NCBI GenBank assembly: GCA_964236955.1
Contig: CAXSGP010000039.1
Location: 1 to 40,110, forward strand
DNA: 40,110 bases
From: an uncultured Oligoflexus sp.
Lineage (GTDB): Bacteria > Bdellovibrionota_B > Oligoflexia > Oligoflexales > Oligoflexaceae
Direction: 5' to 3'
Part shown: positions 56 through 25,055 of the stretch, one piece after another
Layout of the letters: every line of letters begins with the position of its first letter
Position numbering within the stretch: position 1 is the stretch's first letter
Made by a program: the position numbers and the translations under genes
Notes under the pieces: generated by a model
Database searches by the model: none
Seen by the model: the letters and a program-made list of their open reading frames with translations, nothing else
Told to the model about the DNA's origin: nothing

Positions 56-1950
56 GTGCGCCACGAGGCGCGCACTTGTCAGCGGGAGATAGACCCGTCG
101 GGAAAGTGGCGACCCACCACACCCGTATATAGGTTTGGAGCCATGGAGGTGACGATATGGTTTAAGCGTAACCAATGAGAGATACGAAGCCGCAATCCGC
201 AAGGATGAAGCGATTGAGCCTCGACATAAAGCATCCGGAGTGGCTGCCAGGCTTGAAAACCTGATGCCGCTACATCGCAATTACCGACATGGGCATGGAG
301 ATTGTGGCACTCCCGGGGTCATAGAGCGTGGCGTAGTATCACAGGCAAGTGCGTGAACGTGGGATATCTCGTGGCCTCTTCAGGACGAAGTACTGGCAAA
401 CAAGTCTAAACGCGAGAATGCCAGGATGGGTTCTACACGAGAAGTCAGATGGGGCATATTACTCCGAGTATGGGAAAGCCATATACATGGGGAAGGCCTC
501 TAGGTTGAATCGCCCTCAAAGAGGAAACGTTATGGGGCCAACAGAGCACCAATTCTCGACGAAAACGAAATTAGAGAGGATAACTTGGTTGTCCAGACGC
601 GATCCCATAAAGAAGTTTGATTGCCTCATGCATCTCTTCAATATGGAATCGCTTACGGCATGTTACCACGAGTTGGACGGGAGAAAGGCTGTCGGTAGCG
701 ATCGTGTGAGCAAGGAGGACTATGGACAAGCGTTAAGTGAGAACATCGAAAGGCTAGTGCCTAGAATGAAAGAGATGGCCTATCGACCGGGTCCTGTACG
801 AGAAGTACTGATACCAAAGGAAGGTCAGGCCGGATCTTATCGCCCTCTTGGAATAGCTAATTTCGAGGACAAAATGGTGCAAAAGATGACATCGAAGATA
901 CTTGAGAGCATTTATGAGCCGATATTTATGGGCTGTTCTTATGGATTCAGACCTGGACGAAGCTGCCATGATGCGATACGAGATCTTAGTAATTATCTTT
1001 ATCGTCATGAAGTTGAATCGATAATTGATGTGGACTTAGCAAATTTCTTCGGGACCATCCGTCCGATGGTGGTAGATGAAATCTTGCGGAAGAAAGTCGG
1101 CGATAGCCGATTCCTACGATACATCCAGCGACTTTTCAAAGCTGGAGTATTGAAAGATGGTGAGCTAACAATGAGCGATGAAGGTGTGCCTCAGGGTTCG
1201 CCCGCAAGTCCCATTATCGCTAATATCGTTGCGCACGAAGTACTAGATGTATGGTTCGATAAAATCGTCAAAGCCCACTGTCGTGGCCGCGTTGAGATAT
1301 TTCGATACTGTGATGATCTGGTTATCTGCTGCCAGTATGCGACGGACGCATTAAGAGTGCATAAATCACTTGGTCTGCGACTGAAGAAATATGGATTGAA
1401 ATTGAATGAAGAAAAGACACGTCTGATCCGCTTCTCCAAGGGGAATATGAAAAGAGGCGAGGCACAGGAGAGTTTCGATTTTCTTGGCTTCACTTTCTAC
1501 CTGGGTAAATCGCGCAAAGGAAGCATCATTCCTAAGCACAAAACCAGTTGTAAACGCCTTAGGAGCAAGTTAAAGCGAGTCAAAGAATGGGTCCGGGATC
1601 ATCGCAGTAAAATGCGACTCCCTGAACTATGGGCGATATTCTGCTCAAAACTTAGGGGGCACGTCGCCTACTATGGGGTATCGTTCAATCAAGAAAGCGT
1701 GGGAAACTTTATCAAAGAATCGATTCGTATTGTCTTCAAATGGTTGAATCGCCGTGGAGGAAGGAAACGAATTTCCTGGGATAAATTCCAGCTGTTTCTA
1801 AACCGAAATCCACCGCCAGCAAATATAGTCCATCACAAACTTTTCACGATACAATCAAGCCAATGATTCAATCTTAAGCCCGTTGCCTTAATAGGGCACG
1901 GCGGGTTTGAACGGGGGGTGCGTTTAGGAGAACTAGCGCATCTACCCTCT
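56..1950 (+). mobile_element. Group II intron (ribozyme plus RT/maturase ORF), endonuclease-less, probably bacterial class E-like
   Basis: 5' GUGCG at 56. EBS1 UGAAAA (254-259) sits in a CAGG/CCUG-closed loop and is complementary to the 5' exon TTTTCA (50-55). Domain V has the AGC triad (1877-1879) and an AC bulge. Domain VI has a bulged A in CUACCC. Both boundaries are confirmed by reconstitution of the IS ATG. Confidence 0.95.
532..1866 (+). CDS. ltrA: Group II intron reverse transcriptase/maturase
   Basis: RT motifs RPLGI, SYGFRPGRS, GVPQGS, RYCDD and FDFLGF, then an X/thumb domain, with no HNH. The frame is open from 349, but ATG 532 follows a GAGGA RBS at 521-525. Confidence 0.93.
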   Translation: MGPTEHQFSTKTKLERITWLSRRDPIKKFDCLMHLFNMESLTACYHELDGRKAVGSDRVSKEDYGQALSENIERLVPRMKEMAYRPGPVREVLIPKEGQAGSYRPLGIANFEDKMVQKMTSKILESIYEPIFMGCSYGFRPGRSCHDAIRDLSNYLYRHEVESIIDVDLANFFGTIRPMVVDEILRKKVGDSRFLRYIQRLFKAGVLKDGELTMSDEGVPQGSPASPIIANIVAHEVLDVWFDKIVKAHCRGRVEIFRYCDDLVICCQYATDALRVHKSLGLRLKKYGLKLNEEKTRLIRFSKGNMKRGEAQESFDFLGFTFYLGKSRKGSIIPKHKTSCKRLRSKLKRVKEWVRDHRSKMRLPELWAIFCSKLRGHVAYYGVSFNQESVGNFIKESIRIVFKWLNRRGGRKRISWDKFQLFLNRNPPPANIVHHKLFTIQSSQ

Positions 1951-2182
1951 TGAGACCTCCGAGACCTTCCTGGCAGAGTATGCCATTGCAACTTAACTAA
2001 GTCACTGGTCTAGTTTTCGGGGTCCTTCTCAGTTCAATGGTAGTCGAGATTTTCCGACTCACCTAAAGTCTGTCCGAAACCTCTCAAGTAAGAGTTGATG
2101 TCATCGCGAAGCGAGGATCGAACTAACTGGACAAAATAATTCGGTGATTCTATAAAAATAGATCCTGTTAGAAAGGAAACGT

Positions 2183-2617
2183 ATGGTCAGCTTTCGAGAA
2201 GTGAAGATTGAAGATGCTGAACAAGTTGCAGAATTAATAACCCAACTTGGATATCAGACTGACAAAATACAAATGACTGATCGATTGCAGAACTTGATTC
2301 ATAAGTCAGATCGCGCAACGATTGTAGCTGAAGTGGACGGTGCTGTTACTGGCATCATAGGAATGAATATCAGCCCATATTATGAAAAAGATGGCCTTTA
2401 TGGACGTATCGTTGTGTTAGTTGTGAATGAAAGACATCGCGGAAAAAACATCGGAAAGAACCTCCTAAATCAGGCTGAGCAATGGTTTCGTAAGAATGAA
2501 GCTAGCGATGTTGTTGTCAATAGCGGCGTTCAACGCATGGATACTCATCGGTTTTATGAAAAATTTGGCTACGAAAAAACTGGCTTTCGTTTCGTTAAAA
2601 AGATCATTGCAAAATGA
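2183..2617 (+). CDS. GNAT family N-acetyltransferase
   Basis: VVNERHRGKNIGKNLL acetyl-CoA motif A and RFYEKFGY; AAGGA RBS. Confidence 0.88.
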   Translation: MVSFREVKIEDAEQVAELITQLGYQTDKIQMTDRLQNLIHKSDRATIVAEVDGAVTGIIGMNISPYYEKDGLYGRIVVLVVNERHRGKNIGKNLLNQAEQWFRKNEASDVVVNSGVQRMDTHRFYEKFGYEKTGFRFVKKIIAK

Positions 2618-2678
2618 CCGTTCAGAATCAGGGCTTGCATGTCTATTCAGTTATTTATCAGCATATTGCCAGGGCAAA

Positions 2679-3170
2679 ATGCATATTCTCAAGCAAGCGC
2701 ATTCAAACGACGCGGATAAACTTTGGTCTCTTCGAACTAAAACGATTTTAGCCATTCCATCGTCATTTTATGAAAAAGCATCTACTGAGATGTGGGCTAA
2801 TAAGCGTCAATTTCCTCAATTTAAATCTATAATCGAAGAAAACTTCTATCTTATTTATGAGTTGAAAAATGAGATCGGTGCAGGTGGTTTTTTAGATTTA
2901 AAGAATCAATCTATCGAAGCAATGTATGTTGCGCCTGAGTTACAAGGAAAGGGAATAGGAAAATCTATTTTAAATGCTCTTCTATTAGAAGCCCGAAAGA
3001 GAGAAATGAAAACGGTTTCTCTATCCTCGACCCTAAATGCAGAAAAATTCTATACGTCACTTGGCTTTAAGAGCCTGGGTTTGTCGAAATACAGATTTGA
3101 AAATGGGCAACAGTTTGACTGTGTCGAAATGAAAATCGAACTTGACGCACCTTACATATGCGGACTTTAA
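2679..3170 (+). CDS. GNAT family N-acetyltransferase
   Basis: MYVAPELQGKGIGKSIL and NAEKFYTSLGF. Start placed at ATG 2679 to avoid overlap with the upstream gene (the ORF track starts it at 2496). Confidence 0.85.
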   Translation: MHILKQAHSNDADKLWSLRTKTILAIPSSFYEKASTEMWANKRQFPQFKSIIEENFYLIYELKNEIGAGGFLDLKNQSIEAMYVAPELQGKGIGKSILNALLLEARKREMKTVSLSSTLNAEKFYTSLGFKSLGLSKYRFENGQQFDCVEMKIELDAPYICGL

Positions 3171-3387
3171 TATTTAAAAAAGTAGTAATGTGAGCTAGGC
3201 ATTTTTACGTCTTTAAGATTGTTCGCGTAGGCGTTCGGTCCCACGGCTTACTCCCGCCGCTAGGCATCTCGGTACGCCATAGGTGGACAGAATCCTGACG
3301 AAAGCGATCATGGAAAAACGGGTCGTCTTCGAGGCCGAATTCAAGAATTAAAGATCGCCGCGCATATCCGTGACCCGAGAAAATCCC

Positions 3388-4206
3388 TCACATCTGGTCA
3401 GCATTTCTCGAATTATCCGTCCAAGGAAACCATTCAGGAATCTTTCCCGATATCAGAAGAATTCCCAGGATGACAAATGGAATACTCAAGAGCTGCCCCA
3501 TATTCAGGAGCATATTGCTTTCGAACGAAACTTGGTTTTCTTTCGTGAATTCGATTAGAATTCTGCTCAGAAATATCCACGAGAGCATTAAACCTATCAG
3601 TTGCCCTCTGGCCACACTTGATCTTTTGAAATAGAATCGATAGAGAATACCGGTCAGCACGAAATAACTTATCGCTTCGTAAAGCATGGATGGATGCCTA
3701 GGAATGTTATCATGATTTTAAGTGAAAATAATTGCCCAAGGAAGATCTGATGGATGCCCAAGAATTTCGGAGTTGAAAAAGTTTCCTATTCTTATGCAAC
3801 CTGCTGTGAAAGCTACTCCGATGGAAAGTCTGTCAGCGAGCCACAGATAACTCAGGTCCTGATGTTTCCTATGATAGATCCATACGGCAAGCAACACTCC
3901 TATGGCTCCTCCATGACTTGCCAATCCACCTTGCCAAACAAATAGTATGCTCAGAGGATTCTGGAGATACTCTAGAGGAGCATAGAACAGACAATGCCCC
4001 AATCGGGCACCGATTATCGTCCCGATAACAATATGCGTAAGAAGCGAAGAAAGATCCTCGGTCGATCGACCTTCTTTTTGAAATATTCTCTGTGTTATTG
4101 AATAGCCAACCAAAAAGCCTAGGGCAAACATCAGCCCATACCATCGTGGGCCAAACGAGCCGATTTTAAAGATCTCCTTTTGAAAATCCCAAACAAAGTG
4201 ATTCAT
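3388..4206 (-). pseudogene. lgt: Prolipoprotein diacylglyceryl transferase with an in-frame TAA at 3718-3720
   Basis: Lgt motifs RWYGL, GARLGHCLFY, GGLASHGG, RIGNFFNSE and PRHPSMLYEA. Both halves are in the same frame: WAIIFT*NHDNIPRHPSMLYEA. Confidence 0.88.
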
Positions 4207-4243
4207 TCAAAATGTCCTTCACAAGACCGGCCTTAAGCCTAGA

Positions 4244-4657
4244 TTAATAAGCGATAAAGAGACTAGGTAGTACAATTATCGCGGTAACAACTTTGAGGAC
4301 AAAATCTTTGGGTAGACGTGAATGTCTCAGCCCCAAATGGTTCAAGGTCGCCTTAAGCATTTTGGTCGCTCCGTAGATTTTCGAAAAATCCATATCGCCT
4401 AAGTGGGCTTTATCTTCTCGAAGAAAAAGCGACCCCTTCTCTATGGTTTCTGGAATCTGTTGAATCTCAAGTCTGAGGTCATTAAGCCTTTTTTCATTCA
4501 AGCGGGCGGAAATCCACTCCTCGATTTCTTCCTTTTGATGAGAAGTCATCTTAATGGATGCCGATGGAATGAACTCAAACGACGCTCGATCTATAGTTCC
4601 GACTTCTTTGCGCCGGATTCGGAGTTCGAATTTCAGAATCGTTCGCAGCAGGACCAA
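4244..4657 (-). CDS. Hypothetical protein, possibly 5'-truncated, with a C-terminal hydrophobic segment
   Basis: Open frame with protein-like composition, co-oriented with lgt. Its 5' end overlaps the integrase remnant on the other strand, so the start is doubtful. Confidence 0.35.
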   Translation of the reverse strand: MVLLRTILKFELRIRRKEVGTIDRASFEFIPSASIKMTSHQKEEIEEWISARLNEKRLNDLRLEIQQIPETIEKGSLFLREDKAHLGDMDFSKIYGATKMLKATLNHLGLRHSRLPKDFVLKVVTAIIVLPSLFIAY

Positions 4658-5172
4658 CGAACTTAATTGGTAAGGCCGCTATCGAAAGAGAAAAAAATAC
4701 TTTCATCGCGTCAATAAATGATCGGCACAAGCCGGTAGCGTTCCTTCACGTCCAAGCGGCGGAAAAAGCGAACATAAAGAACAAGCAGGTATCGAATCTT
4801 CTCGGCACTCCCGATGACGATCCGAAGAGTGGCCCTTACTTCGCTTGCTGCCTTTCCATAGAGCTTGGAAAGATGATTGCCGAGGCGATTAAGAATGGCG
4901 AGCACTTGCGCCCTAAAGGTTTTACCTTATATTCGGTTCGCAATTCGATTCTAAAATTGCCCGATGACGTCTCCAACGTGAAGTTTGATCTTTGGAAAAC
5001 TCACGATTTTCGACGCGCTCATATCACTCTTGCCGCTCTTGCCTGGGGAAGTTTCGGCGACGTCGCGAAAGCTCATGGTCAAGCTTCAGAGATGACAGCG
5101 CGAAGATATTTTCAATGGGGATTGGCCATGAAGAGAAACGAAGAGACAGTCGAGTTTGTACTAAACCTCTAG
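4597..5172 (+). pseudogene. Tyrosine recombinase/integrase catalytic domain, N-terminally truncated
   Basis: The frame of ORF 4873..5172 stays open back to TAG 4594-4596. It contains GFGVRISE (box I Arg), PKSG, HDFRR, HGQ and TARRY (catalytic Tyr), with no start codon before box I. Confidence 0.8.
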
Positions 5173-5175
5173 TCG

Positions 5176-6630
5176 TTATCTTACTTTCACCATTTTTCTC
5201 CCAGTTCGAGCTACACATACACCGTTTCTGATGATGAACGCTTCAACCCAGTGGGTCCCACGAAAACTCGTGCTTTCCCAACGGATAGTTGGAGCGTTCT
5301 TCTCTCCATCTATGAAATCTCCCCGAAGTTCATTGACGCTCGCTGCTTCCTGCCCGCTATTGACAACTTGCCATTTAACGTCGAAAGTCCCAGGTACGTT
5401 CGTTGATACTCTGAATTGAATGTGGGTCTTTTTGCCAATTGGACGGTCAGTAAGGGCGCCGATATTTTTATGGCTATATTTTCCAGGGTGAAGCGTCGCG
5501 GAAATAGCCGCTTTGTACTGCGTAGCTATCGGCCAAAGGGGGGCTTGACAATGATGCGTTGACGCTAAGGCAGGCACCAAAGACAACGGATTCGCCGGTA
5601 AACTTTTTTGCAGACGTTCCGTAAGAACTTCCGCCTTCCTCACGATACCTAATCCCATCATCTGCTCTAGCATTATCTTGGCGCCGAACAAGTCTTTCGC
5701 GGCGAACATTGCGGTAAAGTCAGTTTTCGCTTTCTCTAGCCATAGGAAGATGTCCTTACGTCTTTCGGGGTACTGATTCCACTTGTCTGCGAAATTTTCG
5801 CCCTCATCGGCAGGGTTTTGTACGATATATTTGCCGTCTTTTACCTGAATGAAAACCTCCATTCCATTCAGTATGCCAAGTAACGATGGCTGGAGATCGT
5901 CTTGATTTTGATAGGCCCAAGCGGCCAGCGTCGTGATAATAATTGACACCGGGCGTCGCTCGCACTCGTTGGCAAAGAATACATCCCTATGTCTCTTTAA
6001 AATCTGCACAACTCGTTGAAGGGGAGTTTTTACTTGCCAATCGGGAAGTTCGGCTACTTCCACGCTAATGGATTTGGCAAACGCCGCTCTTTTTTCTAGG
6101 AGCACTATTCTCATGCGATCTTTAAACCAGTCAGCATATTTAATCGGATTGCTGTATTGCCAGTGTCGAAGTTCCTTGTCCGTCAGCGAGATTCCTGTGG
6201 GCAAATTTTCTTCGTTAGGTATTGCTGGAAGAACGTCCATGTGCAACTGATCTGTGAAATTTATTCGCCAGCAACGACGACTTTCAACAACCTTCCCTTT
6301 GAGATCATCGTCAGATTTTAATCGATCACCAACTCTCTTTTTAAGTTCGGCCTGAGTGATAGACGTTTTCTGGATGTCAAGCTCGCAAACCAAATCGATA
6401 TCGTACTCGTCCTTATCGCTCAAAGGTTTTACTACCGTACCCAATCGAAACGAACCTTGAGGATATATTTTTAAAGAGTTCGTAGTCAGCTTCGATTCTT
6501 CATCAGACAAGTGCTCTGCCATTTGAAGATATTTTAACTTTACGTCTTCGTGGAGTTCATCGGGGATGTCAAGAGCTTCGGCAACGGATTTCAAAAGACT
6601 CTCGATATCGGAACGAGCTGTTCTAAACAT
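5176..6630 (-). CDS. CBASS cGAS/DncV-like nucleotidyltransferase (CD-NTase) with a C-terminal AGS-C domain
   Basis: QGSFRLGT...YDIDL...DVLP NTase core, followed by LKRHRD, SIIITTLAA and ENFADKW. The C-terminal KWQVVNSG..A..LRGDF..WEST.F.G.HWVEAF matches AGS-C. Confidence 0.92.
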   Translation of the reverse strand: MFRTARSDIESLLKSVAEALDIPDELHEDVKLKYLQMAEHLSDEESKLTTNSLKIYPQGSFRLGTVVKPLSDKDEYDIDLVCELDIQKTSITQAELKKRVGDRLKSDDDLKGKVVESRRCWRINFTDQLHMDVLPAIPNEENLPTGISLTDKELRHWQYSNPIKYADWFKDRMRIVLLEKRAAFAKSISVEVAELPDWQVKTPLQRVVQILKRHRDVFFANECERRPVSIIITTLAAWAYQNQDDLQPSLLGILNGMEVFIQVKDGKYIVQNPADEGENFADKWNQYPERRKDIFLWLEKAKTDFTAMFAAKDLFGAKIMLEQMMGLGIVRKAEVLTERLQKSLPANPLSLVPALASTHHCQAPLWPIATQYKAAISATLHPGKYSHKNIGALTDRPIGKKTHIQFRVSTNVPGTFDVKWQVVNSGQEAASVNELRGDFIDGEKNAPTIRWESTSFRGTHWVEAFIIRNGVCVARTGRKMVKVR

Positions 6631-6636
6631 ATTTTC

Positions 6637-7590
6637 TCAACTATGTATCGGTGTATAGATGCTTGCGCGATGGCCGCAGAATTTTGCTTTGAAAGTCGGT
6701 GCGAAATTCCTGCTGTGAAAAGCACCTTTGGCTAACAAATCATCGGTTTTTGAGATGCCATCAAGTGTAAAAGTTCCATGCGCGACCTTCGGATCGAGTC
6801 GTTCAAATCTCTCTTCGCCAAGGAAAAACTTCGACTGGTTTGCAGCTCCTCGACTTTGACCTCGTAAAATCACGCTTACGCCCTCTTCTTTCCAATGCCA
6901 CTTTCCGCCACGAGTTAGAGAACTCGCTCTTTCGGAAATTTCATCAGAAGTTCCTAAACTGCAAATTGATATTTTATCGAGCGGAACCAATAAAGTCCCT
7001 ATGGCTTCGACTAATGCAACCATCGACGGGTTGTTAGCCCATACGCCCCCATCGACGAGGCGTGCCTTATCAACTTCAGTGCAACTCGGAAAATAAGAAG
7101 GGGCGGAACTTGTCGCCAATGCTGCCTTCCAAATCGGAACTCTATAATCTCGTGCTAGTCGCTCATGGTGAGGTGTACGAAATATATAAACGTCGTCATC
7201 GGTCAGTGAATAGGAGGGGATTACGACACGTTTTTGAAGATCTGCAATACGTTTATCGCCAAAGCATTCCTTTAGAGCATCTGAAAGCGGTTCAGAGGAA
7301 AATTTATTACCAAAATATCCTTTGAATGAACTCTTGCGCCGCTTAAATATCTTTGGACCGTTATTCACGTAAAAATTTACTATTTCTCGTGGTCTGATGC
7401 CGTTCGCGAGAGCGAGCGCAATGATTCCTCCTGTCGAAGTCCCTGCTATGAGATCGAAATGATCACTAACATTGATTTTGAGGTCTTCTTCTAGGTTGGC
7501 GAGGATCGCGGCTGACATGAGACCTTTGATCCCGCCCCCGTCAAGAGACAGAATTTGAAACTTCGGAGTTGAGTTTTCCAAGATAAGCAC
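6637..7590 (-). CDS. CBASS patatin-like phospholipase effector (CapV-like)
   Basis: LSLDGGGIKG, GTSTG and DGGVWANNP motifs; ends 6 bp upstream of the CD-NTase. Confidence 0.92.
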   Translation of the reverse strand: MLILENSTPKFQILSLDGGGIKGLMSAAILANLEEDLKINVSDHFDLIAGTSTGGIIALALANGIRPREIVNFYVNNGPKIFKRRKSSFKGYFGNKFSSEPLSDALKECFGDKRIADLQKRVVIPSYSLTDDDVYIFRTPHHERLARDYRVPIWKAALATSSAPSYFPSCTEVDKARLVDGGVWANNPSMVALVEAIGTLLVPLDKISICSLGTSDEISERASSLTRGGKWHWKEEGVSVILRGQSRGAANQSKFFLGEERFERLDPKVAHGTFTLDGISKTDDLLAKGAFHSRNFAPTFKAKFCGHRASIYTPIHS

Positions 7591-15174: not shown

Positions 15175-15897
15175 ATGAGCATGATCACAAATCTCGCTAA
15201 GATCCTCGTGCCGGCGGCTCTTTTTGGAGGAACTGCCTATGCAGCAAAACCAAAGCCAACGACACCTGCGGCTCCTGAGGCAACAGCTCCGGCGACTCCA
15301 GCTCCGACTGGTGCTGAGGCTGCAGCGCCTAAAACTGGAACGGTTCAGATCCTTAGCATCAAGGCTGCTGGAACAGGCTGTGCGGATCCCAGCACTTTTT
15401 CGACCAACATATCTCCTGACAACCAGGCGTTCACTGTAACGTTCTCAGAATTTGTCGCCGAACTTGGCGCTGGGATGCCTTTGAGTGCTGGCCGTAAAAA
15501 TTGTTCGATCACGCTCGACCTTCAGGTTCCAAACGGCTGGCAGTATAGCATCGCAACCTTTAATTATCGCGGTTTCATGGACATCGGAGAAGGGGTACAG
15601 GCTGAGCACGTGACCAAATACTTCTTCCAGGGTCAAACCAACCCAGGTGAATTCAAAGCTTTGGAAATGGGCCCTCTTTCAAAGGATTTCGTTTATACAG
15701 ACAAGGTGGGTCTGACATCGACCTACATCCCCAGCGTCTGGTCACCCTGCAATGCCCGTCGCGCTTTGACAATCAATCCCTCAGTCCGGGTCAGCAAACT
15801 TCCTGGCGCCGCGGCAGACGCTCAGGGATTGATCACCAACGACTCAGTTGATGGTGAATTGAAACAAGTCTTCGGTTTCATTTGGAGAAAATGTTGA
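15175..15897 (+). CDS. Secreted DUF4360-family protein
   Basis: Signal peptide ending AYA, Pro/Ala/Thr linker, then GTGC, RKNC, VPNGWQYSI..YRGF, YFFQG, WSPC and terminal WRKC. Confidence 0.85.
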   Translation: MSMITNLAKILVPAALFGGTAYAAKPKPTTPAAPEATAPATPAPTGAEAAAPKTGTVQILSIKAAGTGCADPSTFSTNISPDNQAFTVTFSEFVAELGAGMPLSAGRKNCSITLDLQVPNGWQYSIATFNYRGFMDIGEGVQAEHVTKYFFQGQTNPGEFKALEMGPLSKDFVYTDKVGLTSTYIPSVWSPCNARRALTINPSVRVSKLPGAAADAQGLITNDSVDGELKQVFGFIWRKC

Positions 15898-17481: not shown

Positions 17482-21279
<3,798 letters not shown>

Positions 21280-21543
21280 GATGTTCCCCTTAAGCTAAGG
21301 AAGGAGGACCCGTTAGATAACACAAAGACGGGGATATTTCCTCTATATAATATTCAATAAAATCAACATGATATAATCTAGATCTAAGTTGGCGTTAAAT
21401 TTTGGGCCTTTTCTACTCTTCGCCAAAAAAGACCTAAGAGCTCAATATCTATGTAGAAACAGCCTGCGTCTGAAAGTATGCAACTAGCGCTCGGGCGAGC
21501 AAATGTCTTATAAATCCAATGCGGACATTAAGGAGGACATATC

Positions 21544-22506
21544 ATGCGCTATTCGAATTTCATCTTAAGTCTCAGTCTTGGCTTGGCAGTTTTTGCCTGT
21601 GGTAAAAATGATAAGAACAAAATTTTAGGCAGCAATGGTGAAACCCCTCAGGATCAGGTCTATACCAACAACGTCGATGGGAATAAGCCTTTGCTCGTGG
21701 TGTATGGGGACAGTCTCTCGACTGGTGTTCTGTCTAATACAACGCTAGGTAAAGACGTTGATAATTCTCTGGCACTTCAGCTTGTCGATTACGCCAAGGA
21801 ACAGGAATTCAACGCCACAGGTTTTCAATCCAGTCTGTCAAACCCTGAACTTGCTGCTGCGACCACCGTCGATGCTTACGGTTTGCGGGCTTCTTTTGCC
21901 GCTAAGAGTGGGGTGACGGCCCCTGAGGTCGGGGTCGTAAGCTTTGCAAAATTTGGTGGCAAAGCGCGGGATTTACCGCATATGCTCGCCGCCTGGGAAA
22001 ATATGGAGAAGAGCACGGTCCCGAAAAAACCGGAGTATATTTACATCATGCTAGGGGGCAACGACTTTTGTTCCGACTTCACGGTTGACGACATTGTGAA
22101 GGATCTCAAAGAGCAATCGAAGGCGATTCACAAAGATGCACCCGACGCACAAATAGTGATCTCCCCTTCGCCACCGATTGATCAGTTGGCAGCGATAGAT
22201 TTTACCTATGGTCCGACCTTGGCTAACGTAACAGGCGAAGAGTTATCGTGTCGTAAGTTCCGCGAAAAGCTTTGCAAAAGGGTCTATGAAGATCCGGCTG
22301 CCGTCAAGGAGCGTATCACTGCAATCAATAAGGGCATTCAATCTGCTGCAGATGAATTAAAGGCCGATGGTGCGAAGGTCGTTTTTGTTTCTGAAATGCT
22401 ACAGTGGCAGATAAAACCCGAAGAGCTTGCAGTCGATTGTTTTCACCCAAGTGCCCTGGGTCAACAGACGATCGGTGGCTTTGTAAAGGCCGCACTTTCC
22501 CGATGA
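21544..22506 (+). CDS. SGNH/GDSL hydrolase lipoprotein
   Basis: Lipobox VFAC; GDSL, GGND and DCFHP motifs; AGGAGG RBS. Confidence 0.88.
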   Translation: MRYSNFILSLSLGLAVFACGKNDKNKILGSNGETPQDQVYTNNVDGNKPLLVVYGDSLSTGVLSNTTLGKDVDNSLALQLVDYAKEQEFNATGFQSSLSNPELAAATTVDAYGLRASFAAKSGVTAPEVGVVSFAKFGGKARDLPHMLAAWENMEKSTVPKKPEYIYIMLGGNDFCSDFTVDDIVKDLKEQSKAIHKDAPDAQIVISPSPPIDQLAAIDFTYGPTLANVTGEELSCRKFREKLCKRVYEDPAAVKERITAINKGIQSAADELKADGAKVVFVSEMLQWQIKPEELAVDCFHPSALGQQTIGGFVKAALSR

Positions 22507-22854
22507 TAAATCTTTGCCTGTCTGCTTAGCAGGTGAGCACCCGTTATTTTTACAATTCTTCATGAGGGGCTGTTGATGTTTGGCTTGGCCAAGGTCACAG
22601 TCCCTGAGCTTACCAGGCCCTTTATGCGGCCGCAGTAATGGTTGGTCTTAGAGGGCCCGTCATTCGACTCGGACATTTCCCCTCTGTTTTTAATACGGGA
22701 CAGAATCACCCGGTATCATCACAAGAAACTCATCGAGACCCAGGCGAAATCTCATGGCCTACCCATTTGAAAGTATTCGTATATTAGGAATGGTGAAAGT
22801 TTTTCGATGATCGACCCGATAGTTAAGTTAGGGAAACTATGCTGGAGGGGCATT

Positions 22855-23664
22855 ATGAATCGATTCATGAGTCAAGGTCTAAAAAATAACATTATTCGCA
22901 ACTTTATCGCCTTAAGTCTATCTTCCGTTTTCATCCTGTCTCTTTCTCTTACGGCGTGTAGTGATGATACTAGAGAAATGTCCATCAGTAAAAGCACGAG
23001 TAGCGGAAGCAAGCAAACCGAAGCTGATAAAATCAACGGCATAGTTGATTACTCGAGCAGTAACGCCGAGATTCAACCTTTAGCACGACGCGATTCAACC
23101 GCTAGCTTGAACCTTTGTCTCGGTCAGGACATTAATACCTTCCACTGTATAGACGACACTTCGTTTCAGCAATGCACCGGCAACGGGACCTTTGCGGTAA
23201 AATCTTGTCCCGCGAATCTTTGCGCAACCCGCACGCCGGCAATAGGAAATCCATGTATCGGCCGGGCTCGTGCCGCCCAAGTCGATGGCGTGGAACCTCC
23301 CGTCGCCGGCAAGCCTAGCGGCGTCGTTAACAACGGACAGGTCAATAATGGAGTCGTCGCTCCGCCTGTGATCGCTGCTCCGCCCGTAGTCGTCGCTCCG
23401 CCTGTGATTGCTGCTCCGCCTGTGATCGCTGCTCCGCCGGTAGTCAATAATGGAGGCAACAACGCCCAGTGCGTCGGAGGTCCTAAATTTGACCCCGCCG
23501 GTGTTAAGAACATCGGTAATGGCATCGGTCAACAGTTCATCGGCGGCCAATGTCTCAGCTCTGCCGATTGTGCCTCGGGTTGCTGTGCCAATCCCTGTGG
23601 TATCTGTTCAGGTGTTGGCGCTCAATTCCAGGCTGGAAAGCTTGGTTGCGGATTTGGGGACTGA
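22855..23664 (+). CDS. Lipoprotein with two Cys-rich domains and a Pro/Val repeat linker; C-terminal domain resembles fungal BAS2
   Basis: GGAGGGG RBS; lipobox LTAC; C-terminus NIGNGIGQQFIGGQCLSSADCASGCC...CSGVGAQFQAGKLGCGF. Confidence 0.75.
   Translation: MNRFMSQGLKNNIIRNFIALSLSSVFILSLSLTACSDDTREMSISKSTSSGSKQTEADKINGIVDYSSSNAEIQPLARRDSTASLNLCLGQDINTFHCIDDTSFQQCTGNGTFAVKSCPANLCATRTPAIGNPCIGRARAAQVDGVEPPVAGKPSGVVNNGQVNNGVVAPPVIAAPPVVVAPPVIAAPPVIAAPPVVNNGGNNAQCVGGPKFDPAGVKNIGNGIGQQFIGGQCLSSADCASGCCANPCGICSGVGAQFQAGKLGCGFGD
23353..23442 (+). repeat. Intragenic tandem repeat, 5 x 18 bp, encoding (V/I)(V/A)APPV
   Basis: Units such as ATCGCTGCTCCGCCTGTG, flanked on both sides by GTCAATAATGGA (23341-23352 and 23443-23454). 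Confidence 0.92.
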
Positions 23665-23920
23665 TCGCTAGGGCCTGGAGAAGTGACCTCAGAAAGAAAG
23701 TTCTTGGGAGCTTTAAAAAAGATCTGAGACTTCCCTCCCGAGCCTGCTTCTAAAAATGTTTTGAAAGTTAAGGCCGGGAAGAAATTCCCGGCCTTCCTGC
23801 GTTTTCGGCCTTGGAAGATGGCGATGGCTGCGGTGGACACCACGGCCCCATTGCTGGTGCCAAGCTTATTGTAAATCCCTTTAGCTTGGCATAGAGTTAT
23901 GAGGTAGCAAGCGAGGAAAT

Positions 23921-24115
23921 ATGCCTTTAACTTTCGTCGAAATGTGTCTGCTCCTAATTGTCCTGGGCCTATTAATTTGGCTTTTGCGACCGCTGCAAAG
24001 ATGGTTGGAAAGTAGGTTGGTGGTGCTTTTCGCGAGATTTGGCGTCCCATCGCGTGATCGTTTCCTCAATACAAGCCATAATGATCTTAACAACTCAAAA
24101 AAAGAAGACGAATAG
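23921..24115 (+). CDS. Small membrane protein
   Basis: GAGG RBS, one hydrophobic helix, and a stop 1 bp before the SPFH start. Confidence 0.55.
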   Translation: MPLTFVEMCLLLIVLGLLIWLLRPLQRWLESRLVVLFARFGVPSRDRFLNTSHNDLNNSKKEDE

Positions 24116-24116
24116 T

Positions 24117-25055
24117 ATGAGACCACGTCCCATTAATCTAAACACTCCTGAAGGTCTTGCGTGGATGGCGAGCCGCATCACGGTGGGAGTGGTCGCCTTT
24201 CTTATTCTCATCTCCCTCTTTAGTTCTTACACGGTGGTCGCGCCTGGCAATACGGGTGTCGTGTTTAACCTATGGACGGGCTCACTTCGAAATGTCGGAC
24301 AAGGCATGGTATGGAAGATTCCCTGGGTCACTCAGGTGCAAAGTTACCCAACCTCCCTGCGGACTTATACCATGGTGCGGAGAAGCGGCGAGGGATCCAA
24401 TGCCGGTGACGACAGCATGGATCTTCCCACGCGCGAGGGCCAGCATATCCGGCAGGATCTCTCGGTGACTTACAATACGACTGAAAATAGAGCTTCGGAC
24501 GTATTTAAGGCCTTTCGGGGCGCAAATATGGAAGAAATTGAAGACACCTTCATCCGCCGAACTATTATCACTGTGGCCCAAAACGTTGCCGGTCAGATGT
24601 CGCTGACCGAGATCATCTCATCGCGACGTGCCGACTTACAAAATGGTATTCAGGAAGCTCTCAGCGGCGAGCTGGAGAAAATGGGCTTTAAACTCGACAA
24701 GATCAACATGGGCGCCAGTCATCTGCCACAGGCTATAGAGTCCCAGATGCAGCAAAAGATGGCAGCCCAGCAGCAGGCTCAGCAGGCGGAATATGAACTG
24801 CAAAAACAGGAGACTCTGGCCAAGGCAAACGTCGCGAGAGCGGAGGGTGAGGCGCAGGCCGTTATCATCAGGGCCAAGGCGGAAGCGGAAGGAAACCGTT
24901 TGCTTCAGCTGACCTTAAATGCGAATCTCATTCAAAGCAAAGCCATCGATAAGTGGAATGGTGTGCTGCCGCAGATCACCAGCGCCGCGACACCCTTTAT
25001 CAATATGAGTCTCCGGCGCAATGAGGATCCGAAAGCTGCTAAGGATGTCCAGTAG
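24117..25055 (+). CDS. SPFH/prohibitin (Band 7) family membrane protein
   Basis: N-terminal TM, VAPGNTGV, Q/A-rich coiled coil with AEGEA, and IDKWNGVLP. Start placed at ATG 24117. Confidence 0.88.
   Translation: MRPRPINLNTPEGLAWMASRITVGVVAFLILISLFSSYTVVAPGNTGVVFNLWTGSLRNVGQGMVWKIPWVTQVQSYPTSLRTYTMVRRSGEGSNAGDDSMDLPTREGQHIRQDLSVTYNTTENRASDVFKAFRGANMEEIEDTFIRRTIITVAQNVAGQMSLTEIISSRRADLQNGIQEALSGELEKMGFKLDKINMGASHLPQAIESQMQQKMAAQQQAQQAEYELQKQETLAKANVARAEGEAQAVIIRAKAEAEGNRLLQLTLNANLIQSKAIDKWNGVLPQITSAATPFINMSLRRNEDPKAAKDVQ

Follow-up and report, generated by a model that had tools for sequence, protein, structure and literature searches.

How does a bacterium come to carry, behind a predicted lipid anchor, a domain known from fungal proteins that are made during plant infection, and what might it do there? 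The question is raised by one gene in a 40,110-nucleotide stretch of DNA from an uncultured Oligoflexus sp., which was analysed at its full length and is called the window here. The domain is that of biotrophy-associated secreted protein 2 (BAS2), which, in the part of the literature available to us, is widely used to mark biotrophic invasion by fungal plant pathogens, including the rice blast fungus, and has been placed in the biotrophic interfacial complex and the host cytoplasm. The literature examined yielded neither a biochemical function nor a solved structure for BAS2, and a search of titles and abstracts, subscription journals excluded, returned no BAS2 in bacteria and no description of BAS2 as a binding module.

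A lipoprotein gene on a bacterial contig

The gene occupies positions 22855 to 23664 of the forward strand, stop codon included, and is a genuine bacterial gene. Reading the sequence and its translation gave an open reading frame of 269 amino acids (the protein P0001, for which homologues exist) in which every motif listed by the first-pass annotation is present. The contig holds MetH, Tgt, ThiC/G, Acs and PurT, and the immediate neighbours of the gene encode a GDSL hydrolase and an SPFH protein. We favour the start at 22855 over an upstream ATG at 22807 because a Shine-Dalgarno sequence, GGAGG (22844 to 22848), lies 6 nucleotides 5' of the ATG, and because the closest homologue, P0003, which is 63% identical to P0001, starts in the same manner. 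Farther upstream is a weak sigma-70-like promoter match, TTAATA-18-TATCAT (22690 to 22719), which agrees with the consensus at 9 of 12 positions and is a consensus match only. A terminator-like hairpin of 11 pairs, 7 of them G-C, with a T-rich tail follows the gene at 23770 to 23805; these signals all lie on the forward strand.

The first coding segment (22855 to 22959) specifies a signal peptide with basic residues at K10 and R15, a hydrophobic stretch from 17 to 31 and then L32-T33-A34-C35. Substrates of signal peptidase II carry the lipobox consensus [LVI][ASTVI][GAS]C, and LTAC in P0001 conforms to it, behind a basic n-region and a hydrophobic h-region; a cysteine follows the hydrophobic stretch in 14 of 16 aligned two-domain homologues. 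The +2 residue is serine, which in E. coli directs lipoproteins to the outer membrane, a rule that may not hold in the window's phylum. P0001 is predicted to be exported and to carry its lipid anchor at Cys35, and by the +2 serine rule its destination is probably the outer membrane. The eukaryotic signal peptide of fungal BAS2 proteins is not present; the signal of P0001 is of the bacterial lipobox type, and its contig is bacterial. A Pfam scan of the whole protein, with a model set that does not include PF28293, returned no family at E ≤ 10, CBM_14 and CBM_19 included. One NCBIfam match, to TrsH/TraH at E 0.094, was taken as noise.

It had been noted that the 5' part of the gene looks more AT-rich than the part encoding the domains. 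The drop is real, with a GC content of 0.39–0.43 against 0.55–0.62 further on, but it does not mark a graft: it arises at the first and second codon positions, so the AT-rich 5' end reflects amino-acid composition. GC3 is 0.42 there and 0.48–0.55 elsewhere in the gene, and the synonymous codon use of the gene lies within the range of the other 26 open reading frames of the window. Codon use is therefore host-like, and a compositional graft at the 5' end was rejected on the basis of GC3 and synonymous codon use.

An assembly artefact, with fungal DNA from a metagenome joined into a bacterial contig, would explain a fungal domain in this place. The run that holds the stretch, X1, is labelled as a lichen metagenome, which must contain fungal DNA, and the source genome is a metagenome-assembled genome (MAG) of 192 contigs and 86% completeness. 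Two further runs from that study, X2 and X3, did not contain the stretch, and no RNA run with it was listed. However, a Logan contig of X1, made by a second assembler, spans window positions 21000 to 24487 with 0 differences and an even depth of 8.3, and so crosses both borders of the gene. The bacterial signal peptide, the first module (D1) and the BAS2 domain all lie in one frame; independent contigs have the same architecture (P0003 in locus L017 at 63% identity, L018 at 80%); and the eight-cysteine BAS2 form found here is confined to bacterial-looking loci, all 29 of 29 having 58–100% of their length in long open reading frames. The host-like codon use argues in the same direction. Misassembly, about which the first-pass annotation had been wary, is unlikely, and a fungal–bacterial chimera in particular has only the slightest chance of being the explanation.

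Two cysteine-rich modules

The C-terminal module (23467 to 23661, forward strand) is, by precomputed annotation of its homologues, a BAS2 domain of the PF28293 type. Among the matches listed, PF28293.1 is assigned to 119 of 120 homologues, and fungal entries named ‘Biotrophy-associated secreted protein 2’ align to the last 21–28% of the query with 71–87% identity, which bears out the BAS2 pattern named by the first-pass annotation. A search without a word index against 1.84 billion representatives gave 241 proteins with E ≤ 1e-3, 30 of them with E ≤ 1e-30; significant fungal relatives of the module were obtained, and the best single-domain matches reach E 1.9e-27 at 86% identity. Compared with BAS2 repeats from Dikarya, Mycena and Trichoderma among them, the module is 75–88% identical; over 60 columns the mean identity is 80% for named repeats of basidiomycetes and 76% for those of Trichoderma. 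In the Atlas, the three best clusters for the module are 100% PF28293, with scores (0.76–0.79) that serve as leads only.

Fungal BAS2 proteins, such as those of Magnaporthe oryzae and Colletotrichum gloeosporioides and the repeat proteins of Mycena and Trichoderma, contain the same domain of about 60 residues, with six common cysteines and long identical stretches (mean 76–80% over the 60 columns). They are secreted and often have domains in tandem, with Pro/Ala-rich linkers between them. In contrast, the bacterial form has a lipoprotein signal in place of the eukaryotic signal peptide, is combined with D1, CBM5/12 or EF-hands, has no host-translocation context and carries an extra pair of cysteines. 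The six core cysteines of the C-x5-C-x3-CC-x6-C-x13-C spacing are all present (C233, C239, C243, C244, C251 and C265), and C206 and C248 come in addition to this core, making up the eight-cysteine form. An N-terminal extra cysteine is found in 104 of the 105 eight-cysteine BAS2 instances aligned at that column, and in a survey of cysteine patterns no BAS2 pattern joined it with the six-cysteine form; C206 and C248 make up one additional pair of the bacterial BAS2 domain and may be bonded to each other. Four eukaryote-looking proteins (P0150, P0153, P0173 and P0185) have the eight-cysteine form behind a KR site, and the domain of P0153 is 88% identical to that of the window. None of the 76 loci scanned was of this type.

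Between lipobox and BAS2 lie a tether, D1 and a linker, all on the forward strand. The Ser/Thr-rich tether (22960 to 23109) is little conserved, with an alignment made mostly of gaps. It holds the LARR sequence that had been likened to a Kex2 site; Kex2 is a eukaryotic enzyme, LARR is not conserved (the closest homologue has LERG there) and the Kex2 reading was rejected. D1 (23110 to 23304) is a module with six cysteines (C88, C98, C107, C118, C123 and C134). The linker (23305 to 23466) is rich in Asn/Gly and Pro, and includes a tandem repeat of 18 nucleotides in 4.4 copies that reads APPVIA (23359–23438).

The structure model of D1 has a pLDDT of 97. When it was compared with 48,161 chains, 11 reached Z ≥ 2, and six of these 11 are chitin-binding chains of the CBM14 type: Der p 23 (Z 3.5), Avr4 with bound chitin (Z 3.3), Blo t 12, the CBM14 domain of CHIT1, a second Avr4 and tachycitin. 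CBM14-type chains thus outnumber any other kind in this short list of structural matches. The values (Z 2.3–3.5, rmsd 2.4–4.1 Å, 46–59 residues aligned) are weak and fall in a range that the tool describes as common. Foldseek returned nothing at E ≤ 0.001, its top match being the CHIT1 CBM14 at E 0.3, and a profile search of the PDB with D1 gave no significant match. D1 resembles CBM14/peritrophin-A domains (Avr4 of C. fulvum, CHIT1 CBM14, Der p 23, tachycitin) in being of similar size, disulfide-rich and built on a small β-sheet, but it has no significant sequence match to CBM14 or the related CBM19 and its cysteine pattern differs. Weak leads to CBM19 are a CBM_19 match below threshold in the D1 region of P0091, a homologue (E 0.083; 13.3 bits, cut-off 20.1), and an Atlas lead (0.82) to a cluster with CBM_19 in 12% of its members. 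Secreted proteins of chytrid fungi (Phlyctochytrium planicorne, Kappamyces sp. and Globomyces spp.) contain homologues of D1 with the motif F-x-C-I-D-D-T ... C-P-x-G-x-C-x-T-R-x-P ... N-P-C-x-G; theirs is a four-cysteine form, lacking C88 and C107, in two to four tandem copies, none of them seen together with BAS2. D1 may therefore have a fold of the chitin-binding type, weakly like CBM14 or CBM19 as modelled, and is a candidate for chitin binding. The earlier comparison with fungal CBM19-like modules holds as far as the chytrid homologues and these weak leads go, and fails at the level of a CBM_14 or CBM_19 Pfam match on P0001 itself.

A patchy bacterial clan with fungal relatives

The eight-cysteine BAS2 form occurs in 86 proteins, 32 of which have both modules. 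By these comparisons P0001 is one member of a diversified clan of bacterial lipoproteins in which each module has one extra pair of cysteines. The first-pass annotation had proposed a fungus-to-bacterium transfer grafted onto a lipoprotein signal. The sharing between kingdoms stands, at about 80% identity, and makes a clear case of small secreted-protein modules common to fungi and bacteria; the grafting was not done in this genome, because the gene belongs to a diversified bacterial protein set.

The clan is rare and patchy, and mostly found in Myxococcota MAGs. Among 185,579 species genomes there are seven loci, in Polyangia, Haliangiales, Kofleriaceae (two), Myxococcales, a ‘delta proteobacterium’ and Gemmatimonadales. 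Within the window's phylum the gene is present in one of 131 genomes, the source genome itself (G000), and 40 relatives gave 0 true matches. The seven proteins that flank the gene in the window were matched in none of the homologue loci fetched. An orthologue of the SPFH protein was found in two genomes of the same genus (G009 and G004), and of 16 further window proteins that were tested, none lay within the 18 kb fetched around it, so the insertion site cannot be defined.

A tree of 103 representative BAS2 domains over 60 columns had 4 of 100 inner branches starred and has no root; given this lack of resolution, it speaks for neither nesting nor direction. A grouping of all bacterial sequences to one side of a branch is compatible with the data (AU p 0.70, unrooted). 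Judged from the sequence comparisons, both modules are common to fungi and to scattered bacteria through horizontal transfer. For BAS2 we lean slightly towards a passage from fungus to bacterium, and the window's lineage most likely received the gene from other bacteria.

Candidate functions at the fungal wall

Relatives of P0001 offer clues to function. Five bacterial lipoproteins (P0144, P0215, P0235, P0236 and a Haliangiales protein at locus L005) follow the same plan, in which a lipobox and a small binding module are joined through a Pro-rich linker to an eight-cysteine BAS2 domain at the C terminus; they differ in having a recognized chitin-binding module, CBM5/12, above the Pfam cut-off where P0001 has D1, and their hosts are high-GC and Myxococcota-like. 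Two fungal GH75 chitosanases, from Chaetomium fimeti (P0183) and Thermothelomyces thermophilus (P0387), have two N-terminal BAS2 domains and were the only two fused forms in a search of longer proteins. An α-1,3-glucanase gene follows an EF-hand–BAS2 lipoprotein gene at locus L020, and a GH114 gene lies 366 nucleotides downstream of a lipoprotein with two BAS2 domains at L004. Some BAS2 lipoproteins have EF-hands and others no further domain. Such partners suggest that the BAS2 module sticks to fungal cell walls, and the pairing of bacterial BAS2 with CBM5/12 and a possible chitin module, together with the fungal GH75 fusions, yields a concrete and cheap hypothesis of glycan binding. The role in chitin or fungal interaction put forward by the first-pass annotation is thus plausible from the domain partners and neighbouring genes of relatives, whereas the gene's own neighbours are silent on fungi. 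Against wall binding count the lack of a conserved neighbourhood, the weak fold matches of D1 and the absence of CBM_14 or CBM_19 Pfam matches on P0001, the unusable BAS2 model, the scarcity of chitin machinery in the source genome, and the BAS2 lipoproteins with EF-hands or no further domain.

Our leading reading, which we hold at a little short of an even chance, is that P0001 is a surface adhesin for the chitin and/or chitosan of fungal walls, with both modules taking part in attachment. The exported lipoprotein would be anchored at Cys35, as predicted in the outer membrane, and would present, beyond a flexible tether, two disulfide-stabilized modules with a stiff Pro-rich spacer between them. 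D1 and BAS2 would both bind wall polymers and so fasten the bacterium to fungal hyphae, here within a lichen; BAS2 would then be an unrecognized carbohydrate-binding module and not a host-targeting effector fold. In the part of the fungal literature available to us, the localization of BAS2 in the biotrophic interfacial complex and the host cytoplasm gives no hint of wall binding. A wider version is more tentative, and we think it doubtful as a whole: BAS2, as a module for amino-sugar polymers of fungal walls, would have passed between fungi and soil bacteria that are fungus-associated or predatory (Myxococcota and, in the window, a Bdellovibrionota-like lineage), gaining in the bacteria a fourth disulfide, lipid anchors and other chitin-binding modules to become surface adhesins with which they attach to fungi or feed on them, here in a lichen. 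The finding points to a molecular means by which poorly known bacteria may live on fungi, also in lichens.

Other functions deserve consideration. D1 could target chitin while BAS2 acts as a knottin-like warhead that inhibits a fungal or host enzyme (a protease, chitinase or glucanase) or perturbs the fungal envelope. The spacing of the six core cysteines is compatible with the C-C-CC-C-C cystine-knot framework, in which disulfides 1–4, 2–5 and 3–6 are knotted, and the only sequences that the BAS2 profile matched in the PDB were EETI-II, a trypsin inhibitor of the knottin class (E 0.25), and Dickkopf (E 1.5–2.6), but these matches are non-significant and the BAS2 model (pLDDT 43.9, from a 44-row alignment) gives no usable fold. 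The position and number of BAS2 domains in the GH75 chitosanases resemble those of a binding module, and since fungi themselves make BAS2 in tandem arrays, a fungitoxic role is less likely; we regard the warhead as unlikely. Somewhat less probable still is a role that has nothing to do with fungi, as a general cysteine-rich lipoprotein of the envelope or of adhesion, be it to arthropod or protist chitin, to prey bacteria or in a structural capacity. This would agree with the lack of a conserved neighbourhood, with the several family members that have no carbohydrate-related partner and with the little chitin machinery in the window's own genome, where one GH18 match was found and CBM5/12 and α-1,3-glucanase were not (in a MAG of the completeness given above). 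It sits poorly with two modules otherwise known from fungi only, and with the recurrence of CBM5/12, GH75, α-1,3-glucanase and GH114 as partners.

The effector literature, as far as we could consult it, describes fungal BAS2 as gathering at the host interface and entering host cells, and this, with the lichen label of the source run and the very high identity to fungal domains, would suit mimicry, in which a copy of a secreted fungal protein, displayed by the bacterium, joins or disturbs signalling between the fungus and its plant or algal partner. We consider this improbable, the least favoured of the functional alternatives to the adhesin: most bacterial holders in the genome set are MAGs of Myxococcota for which no habitat is stated, saprotrophs such as Mycena and Trichoderma commonly have BAS2, and in bacteria the domain comes with a lipid anchor and with modules of the chitin-binding type.

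A lipoprotein gene with a BAS2-type domain

The open frame at 22855-23664 (+) has 269 codons, with GGAGG 6 nt upstream of its ATG and, about 105 nt past the stop codon, a terminator-like hairpin of 11 pairs with a T-rich tail. Its product, P0001, begins with a basic and hydrophobic signal that ends in the lipobox L32-T33-A34-C35, followed by a Ser-rich tether of low conservation (residues 36-85), a 6-Cys module that we call D1 (residues about 86-150), a linker rich in Asn/Gly and Pro, in which an 18-nt unit is repeated in tandem 4.4 times, and a C-terminal 8-Cys module (residues 205-269). All the motifs that the first-pass annotation had quoted for this gene were found in P0001; its reading of LARR as a Kex2 site does not stand.

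The window is one whole 40-kb contig of a 4.9-Mb metagenome-assembled genome (MAG; 192 contigs, 86% complete) and encodes MetH, Tgt, ThiC/ThiG, acetyl-CoA synthetase, PurT and transaldolase. The phylum assignment of this genome is only probable, because the best named relatives of its Tgt, at 89% identity, are MAGs labelled Bdellovibrionota and Proteobacteria. As a check for chimeric assembly, we used the Logan assembly of run X1, a run labelled 'lichen metagenome' and the sole public run with the stretch 22400-24100, which was not found in two other runs of the same study. A single contig spans 21000-24487 with no differences and even depth and bridges both gene borders, although X1 may be the source sample, so that the Logan assembler is independent but the data are not. 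The gene is bacterial and most probably not an assembly artefact. It had also been proposed that fungal domains were grafted onto a lipoprotein signal, and the 5' part had been noted as more AT-rich. GC3 of the gene (0.50) and its synonymous codon use are both inside the range of the other 26 ORFs in the window, and the low GC of the 5' part sits in codon positions 1 and 2 and therefore reflects amino-acid composition; a compositional graft was not borne out.

Judged by homology to annotated PF28293 members, the C-terminal module is a BAS2 (biotrophy-associated secreted protein 2) domain, as first suggested. PF28293.1, the family named BAS2, was precomputed on 119 of the 120 best matches listed in the protein search with P0001, and named fungal 'Biotrophy-associated secreted protein 2' entries (from Mycena, Roridomyces, Sphaerobolus, Ganoderma, Trichoderma, Phialocephala and others) align with the final 21-28% of P0001 at 71-87% identity. 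An exhaustive search retrieved 241 proteins at E<=1e-3. On average over 60 columns, the window domain is 82% identical to other bacterial-type domains; for fungal repeats the means are 80% (named basidiomycetes), 78% (Leotiomycetes) and 76% (Trichoderma).

An HMM built from the BAS2 alignment and run on the retrieved proteins gave 471 domain instances of two kinds. The 6-Cys form occurs in proteins that bear a eukaryotic signal peptide, all named fungi among them, whereas the 8-Cys form (128 instances) has two more cysteines, at the columns of C206 and C248. These co-occur: the N-terminal one is present in 104 of the 105 8-Cys instances aligned at that column, and no Cys pattern among the HMM instances couples it with the 6-Cys form, which suggests that the extra pair forms a fourth disulfide. 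Counted by protein, the 6-Cys form is present in 150 and the 8-Cys form in 86, the latter mostly behind bacterial signals of lipoprotein or Sec type. At the DNA level, the 76 loci scanned comprised 29 8-Cys loci, 45 6-Cys loci and 2 without a motif match. GC is at least 0.6 in 26 of the 8-Cys loci and window-like (0.46-0.50) in 3, and long ORFs fill 58-100% of the length in all 29; in most of the 6-Cys loci long ORFs are sparse, as expected of fungal DNA. What is new here is a bacterial form of a fungal effector-family domain, predicted to be lipid-anchored and to have an extra disulfide, in new domain combinations.

D1 and its possible kinship with CBM14 and CBM19

We found 75 D1 instances, 40 in the bacterial 6-Cys form and 35 without C88 and C107. 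The latter group, frequently in 2-4 tandem copies, contains chytrid (Chytridiomycota) proteins from Kappamyces sp., Phlyctochytrium planicorne and Globomyces spp. In BAS2 and D1 alike, the bacterial form equals the fungal form plus one Cys pair. Both modules occur together in 32 proteins, 31 with the 8-Cys BAS2 form plus the lipoprotein P0168, and in none of the fungal-looking proteins retrieved.

The AlphaFold model of D1 is confident (pLDDT 97, pTM 0.82) and has a three-stranded sheet and a short helix. Foldseek returned nothing at E<=0.001 for this model, the top two rows being CBM14 of human chitotriosidase. In an exhaustive structural comparison, just 11 of 48,161 chains reached Z>=2, six of them chitin-binding CBM14-type proteins: Der p 23 (Z 3.5), Avr4 bound to chitin hexasaccharide (3.3), Blo t 12 (2.9), CHIT1 CBM14 (2.5), a second Avr4 (2.5) and tachycitin (2.3), low values of a size that can reflect a common arrangement. 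A seventh was Aplysia EHEP, which we take to be built of peritrophin-A domains. A repeat structural look gave the same picture of CBM14-type matches.

The first-pass annotation had called this domain CBM19-like. In favour are weak CBM19 leads, namely a sub-threshold match on the D1 of the homologue P0091 (E 0.083) and an Atlas lead (feature score 0.82) to a cluster of basidiomycete proteins, 12% of whose members have CBM_19; Pfam places CBM14 and CBM19 in one clan. However, neither Pfam model matches the D1 of P0001, which puts it outside both families. D1 is possibly CBM14/19-like, as model and sequence comparisons hint, without membership of either. Three unnamed, eukaryote-looking proteins (P0164, P0237 and P0263) carry one or two D1 modules behind an N-terminal Cys-rich region; in P0164 this region (residues 37-71) has a sub-threshold CBM_19 match (E 0.013).

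Distribution and transfer

The window genome has one copy of the gene and is the only one of 131 examined from the phylum to have it. A search of 40 relatives, among them 13 congeners, did not find the gene; the one match (E 3e-5, 28% identity) was low-complexity. A one-genome-per-species scan of 185,579 species yielded 7 loci, a minimum, since the scan relied on exact peptide patterns: one each in Polyangia, Haliangiales, Myxococcales, a 'delta proteobacterium' MAG and a Gemmatimonadales MAG, and two in Kofleriaceae. The closest relatives, P0003 at locus L017 (63% over the full length) and the protein of locus L018 (80% over residues 111-269), lie in unrelated neighbourhoods. Given this absence, patchiness and lack of shared context, the window lineage acquired the gene horizontally, most simply from other bacteria.

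The cross-kingdom BAS2 tree is poorly resolved and unrooted. When all 20 bacterial representatives were constrained to one side of a branch, the tree was not rejected (AU p 0.70), so that a single cross-kingdom event for BAS2 is compatible with the data. This constrained tree scored above the free quick search (lnL +22.4), its bacterial group being partly defined by one Cys column present in the alignment. The fungus-to-bacterium transfer initially proposed keeps the cross-kingdom homology of both modules but not its direction, which cannot be read from a tree without a root. BAS2 is widespread among Dikarya and bacteria seldom have it, and bacterial and basidiomycete domains share 78% mean identity against 72.5% between basidiomycetes and Trichoderma, both of which count for that direction; the D1-BAS2 combination, seen in bacteria only, counts against it. 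Either direction needs two events, because the fungal relatives of D1 are chytrids and those of BAS2 are Dikarya. Four unnamed proteins (P0150, P0153, P0173 and P0185) have fungal-looking prepro-leaders with a KR site directly before the first Cys, yet the 8-Cys BAS2 form, and could mark a lineage that took part in the transfer; among non-bacterial sequences, P0153 comes closest to the window domain (88% identity).

Possible binding to the fungal wall, and other features of the window

Our best explanation, held tentatively, is that P0001 would be a surface-tethered adhesin for chitin or chitosan of the fungal wall, in which BAS2 would act as a binding module. Five bacterial lipoproteins (P0144, P0215, P0235, P0236 and the Haliangiales protein of L005) share the plan of P0001 with a CBM5/12 module, above the Pfam cut-off, in D1's place. 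Two Sordariales GH75 endo-chitosanases, Chaetomium fimeti P0183 and Thermothelomyces thermophilus P0387, have two BAS2 domains at the N-terminus, the usual seat of binding modules. The metagenome contig L020 (window-like, GC 0.49) carries at 1477-4749 the gene of a lipoprotein, P0135, in which a Pro-rich linker stands between EF-hands and an 8-Cys BAS2 domain; an alpha-1,3-glucanase gene (CatAgl D1/D2) comes next. On L004 (5842-8183), a 3.3-Mb contig of the 'delta proteobacterium' MAG, a two-BAS2 lipoprotein (P0080) and a possible 120-aa ORF precede a GH114 gene. The substrates of both enzyme families are polysaccharides of the fungal wall or matrix. Mycena-type proteins combine BAS2 repeats with a Kre9/KNH-like region, a weak match below the cut-off (E 0.0028). 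The lichen label of run X1 also fits a link to fungi.

Many BAS2 family members are without a chitin- or wall-type partner, and BAS2 neighbourhoods are not conserved between the window flanks, which encode a GDSL hydrolase lipoprotein and an SPFH protein, and the homologue loci. In the window genome, at 86% completeness, we found one GH18 match only, and neither CBM5/12 nor alpha-1,3-glucanase. The main rival, that BAS2 is a knottin-like inhibitor or warhead, seems unlikely to us: its core Cys spacing fits the C-C-CC-C-C cystine-knot framework, but a PDB profile search with BAS2 gave nothing significant, the sole matches being a squash knottin (E 0.25) and Dickkopf (E 1.5-2.6), and the predicted structure is of low confidence (pLDDT 43.9). 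The adhesin reading retains the homologies and the fungal-wall idea of the original interpretation, but not its Kex2 site or compositional graft.

The available portions of a review (PMC10669146) and of PMC10094246, PMC6073657 and PMC10118281 give no biochemical function for BAS2. Those of PMC10094246 describe ab initio models with a Z of just 3.2, to an unrelated kinase, and those of PMC6073657 report altered conidiation and penetration in a BAS2 knock-out.

Large proteins with an eCIS core domain are encoded about 2.5 kb from BAS2 genes at L008 (2730-5453, -), in a Kofleriaceae MAG, and at L058 (2787-5192, -), on a similar metagenome contig. In the window, a CBASS-like pair occupies 5176-7590 (-), comprising a SMODS/DncV-like nucleotidyltransferase with an AGS-C sensor domain (5176-6630) and an adjoining patatin-like phospholipase (6637-7590). 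Close to where the contig begins, and ahead of a GNAT acetyltransferase gene, 349-1866 (+) encodes a 505-aa reverse transcriptase (RVT_1, E 9.5e-37) that could be of retron, group II intron or defence type. The DUF4360 protein at 15175-15897 (+; E 8.5e-50) belongs to a family that occurs in fungi too, and may be one more case in this genome of a secreted protein with mixed distribution.
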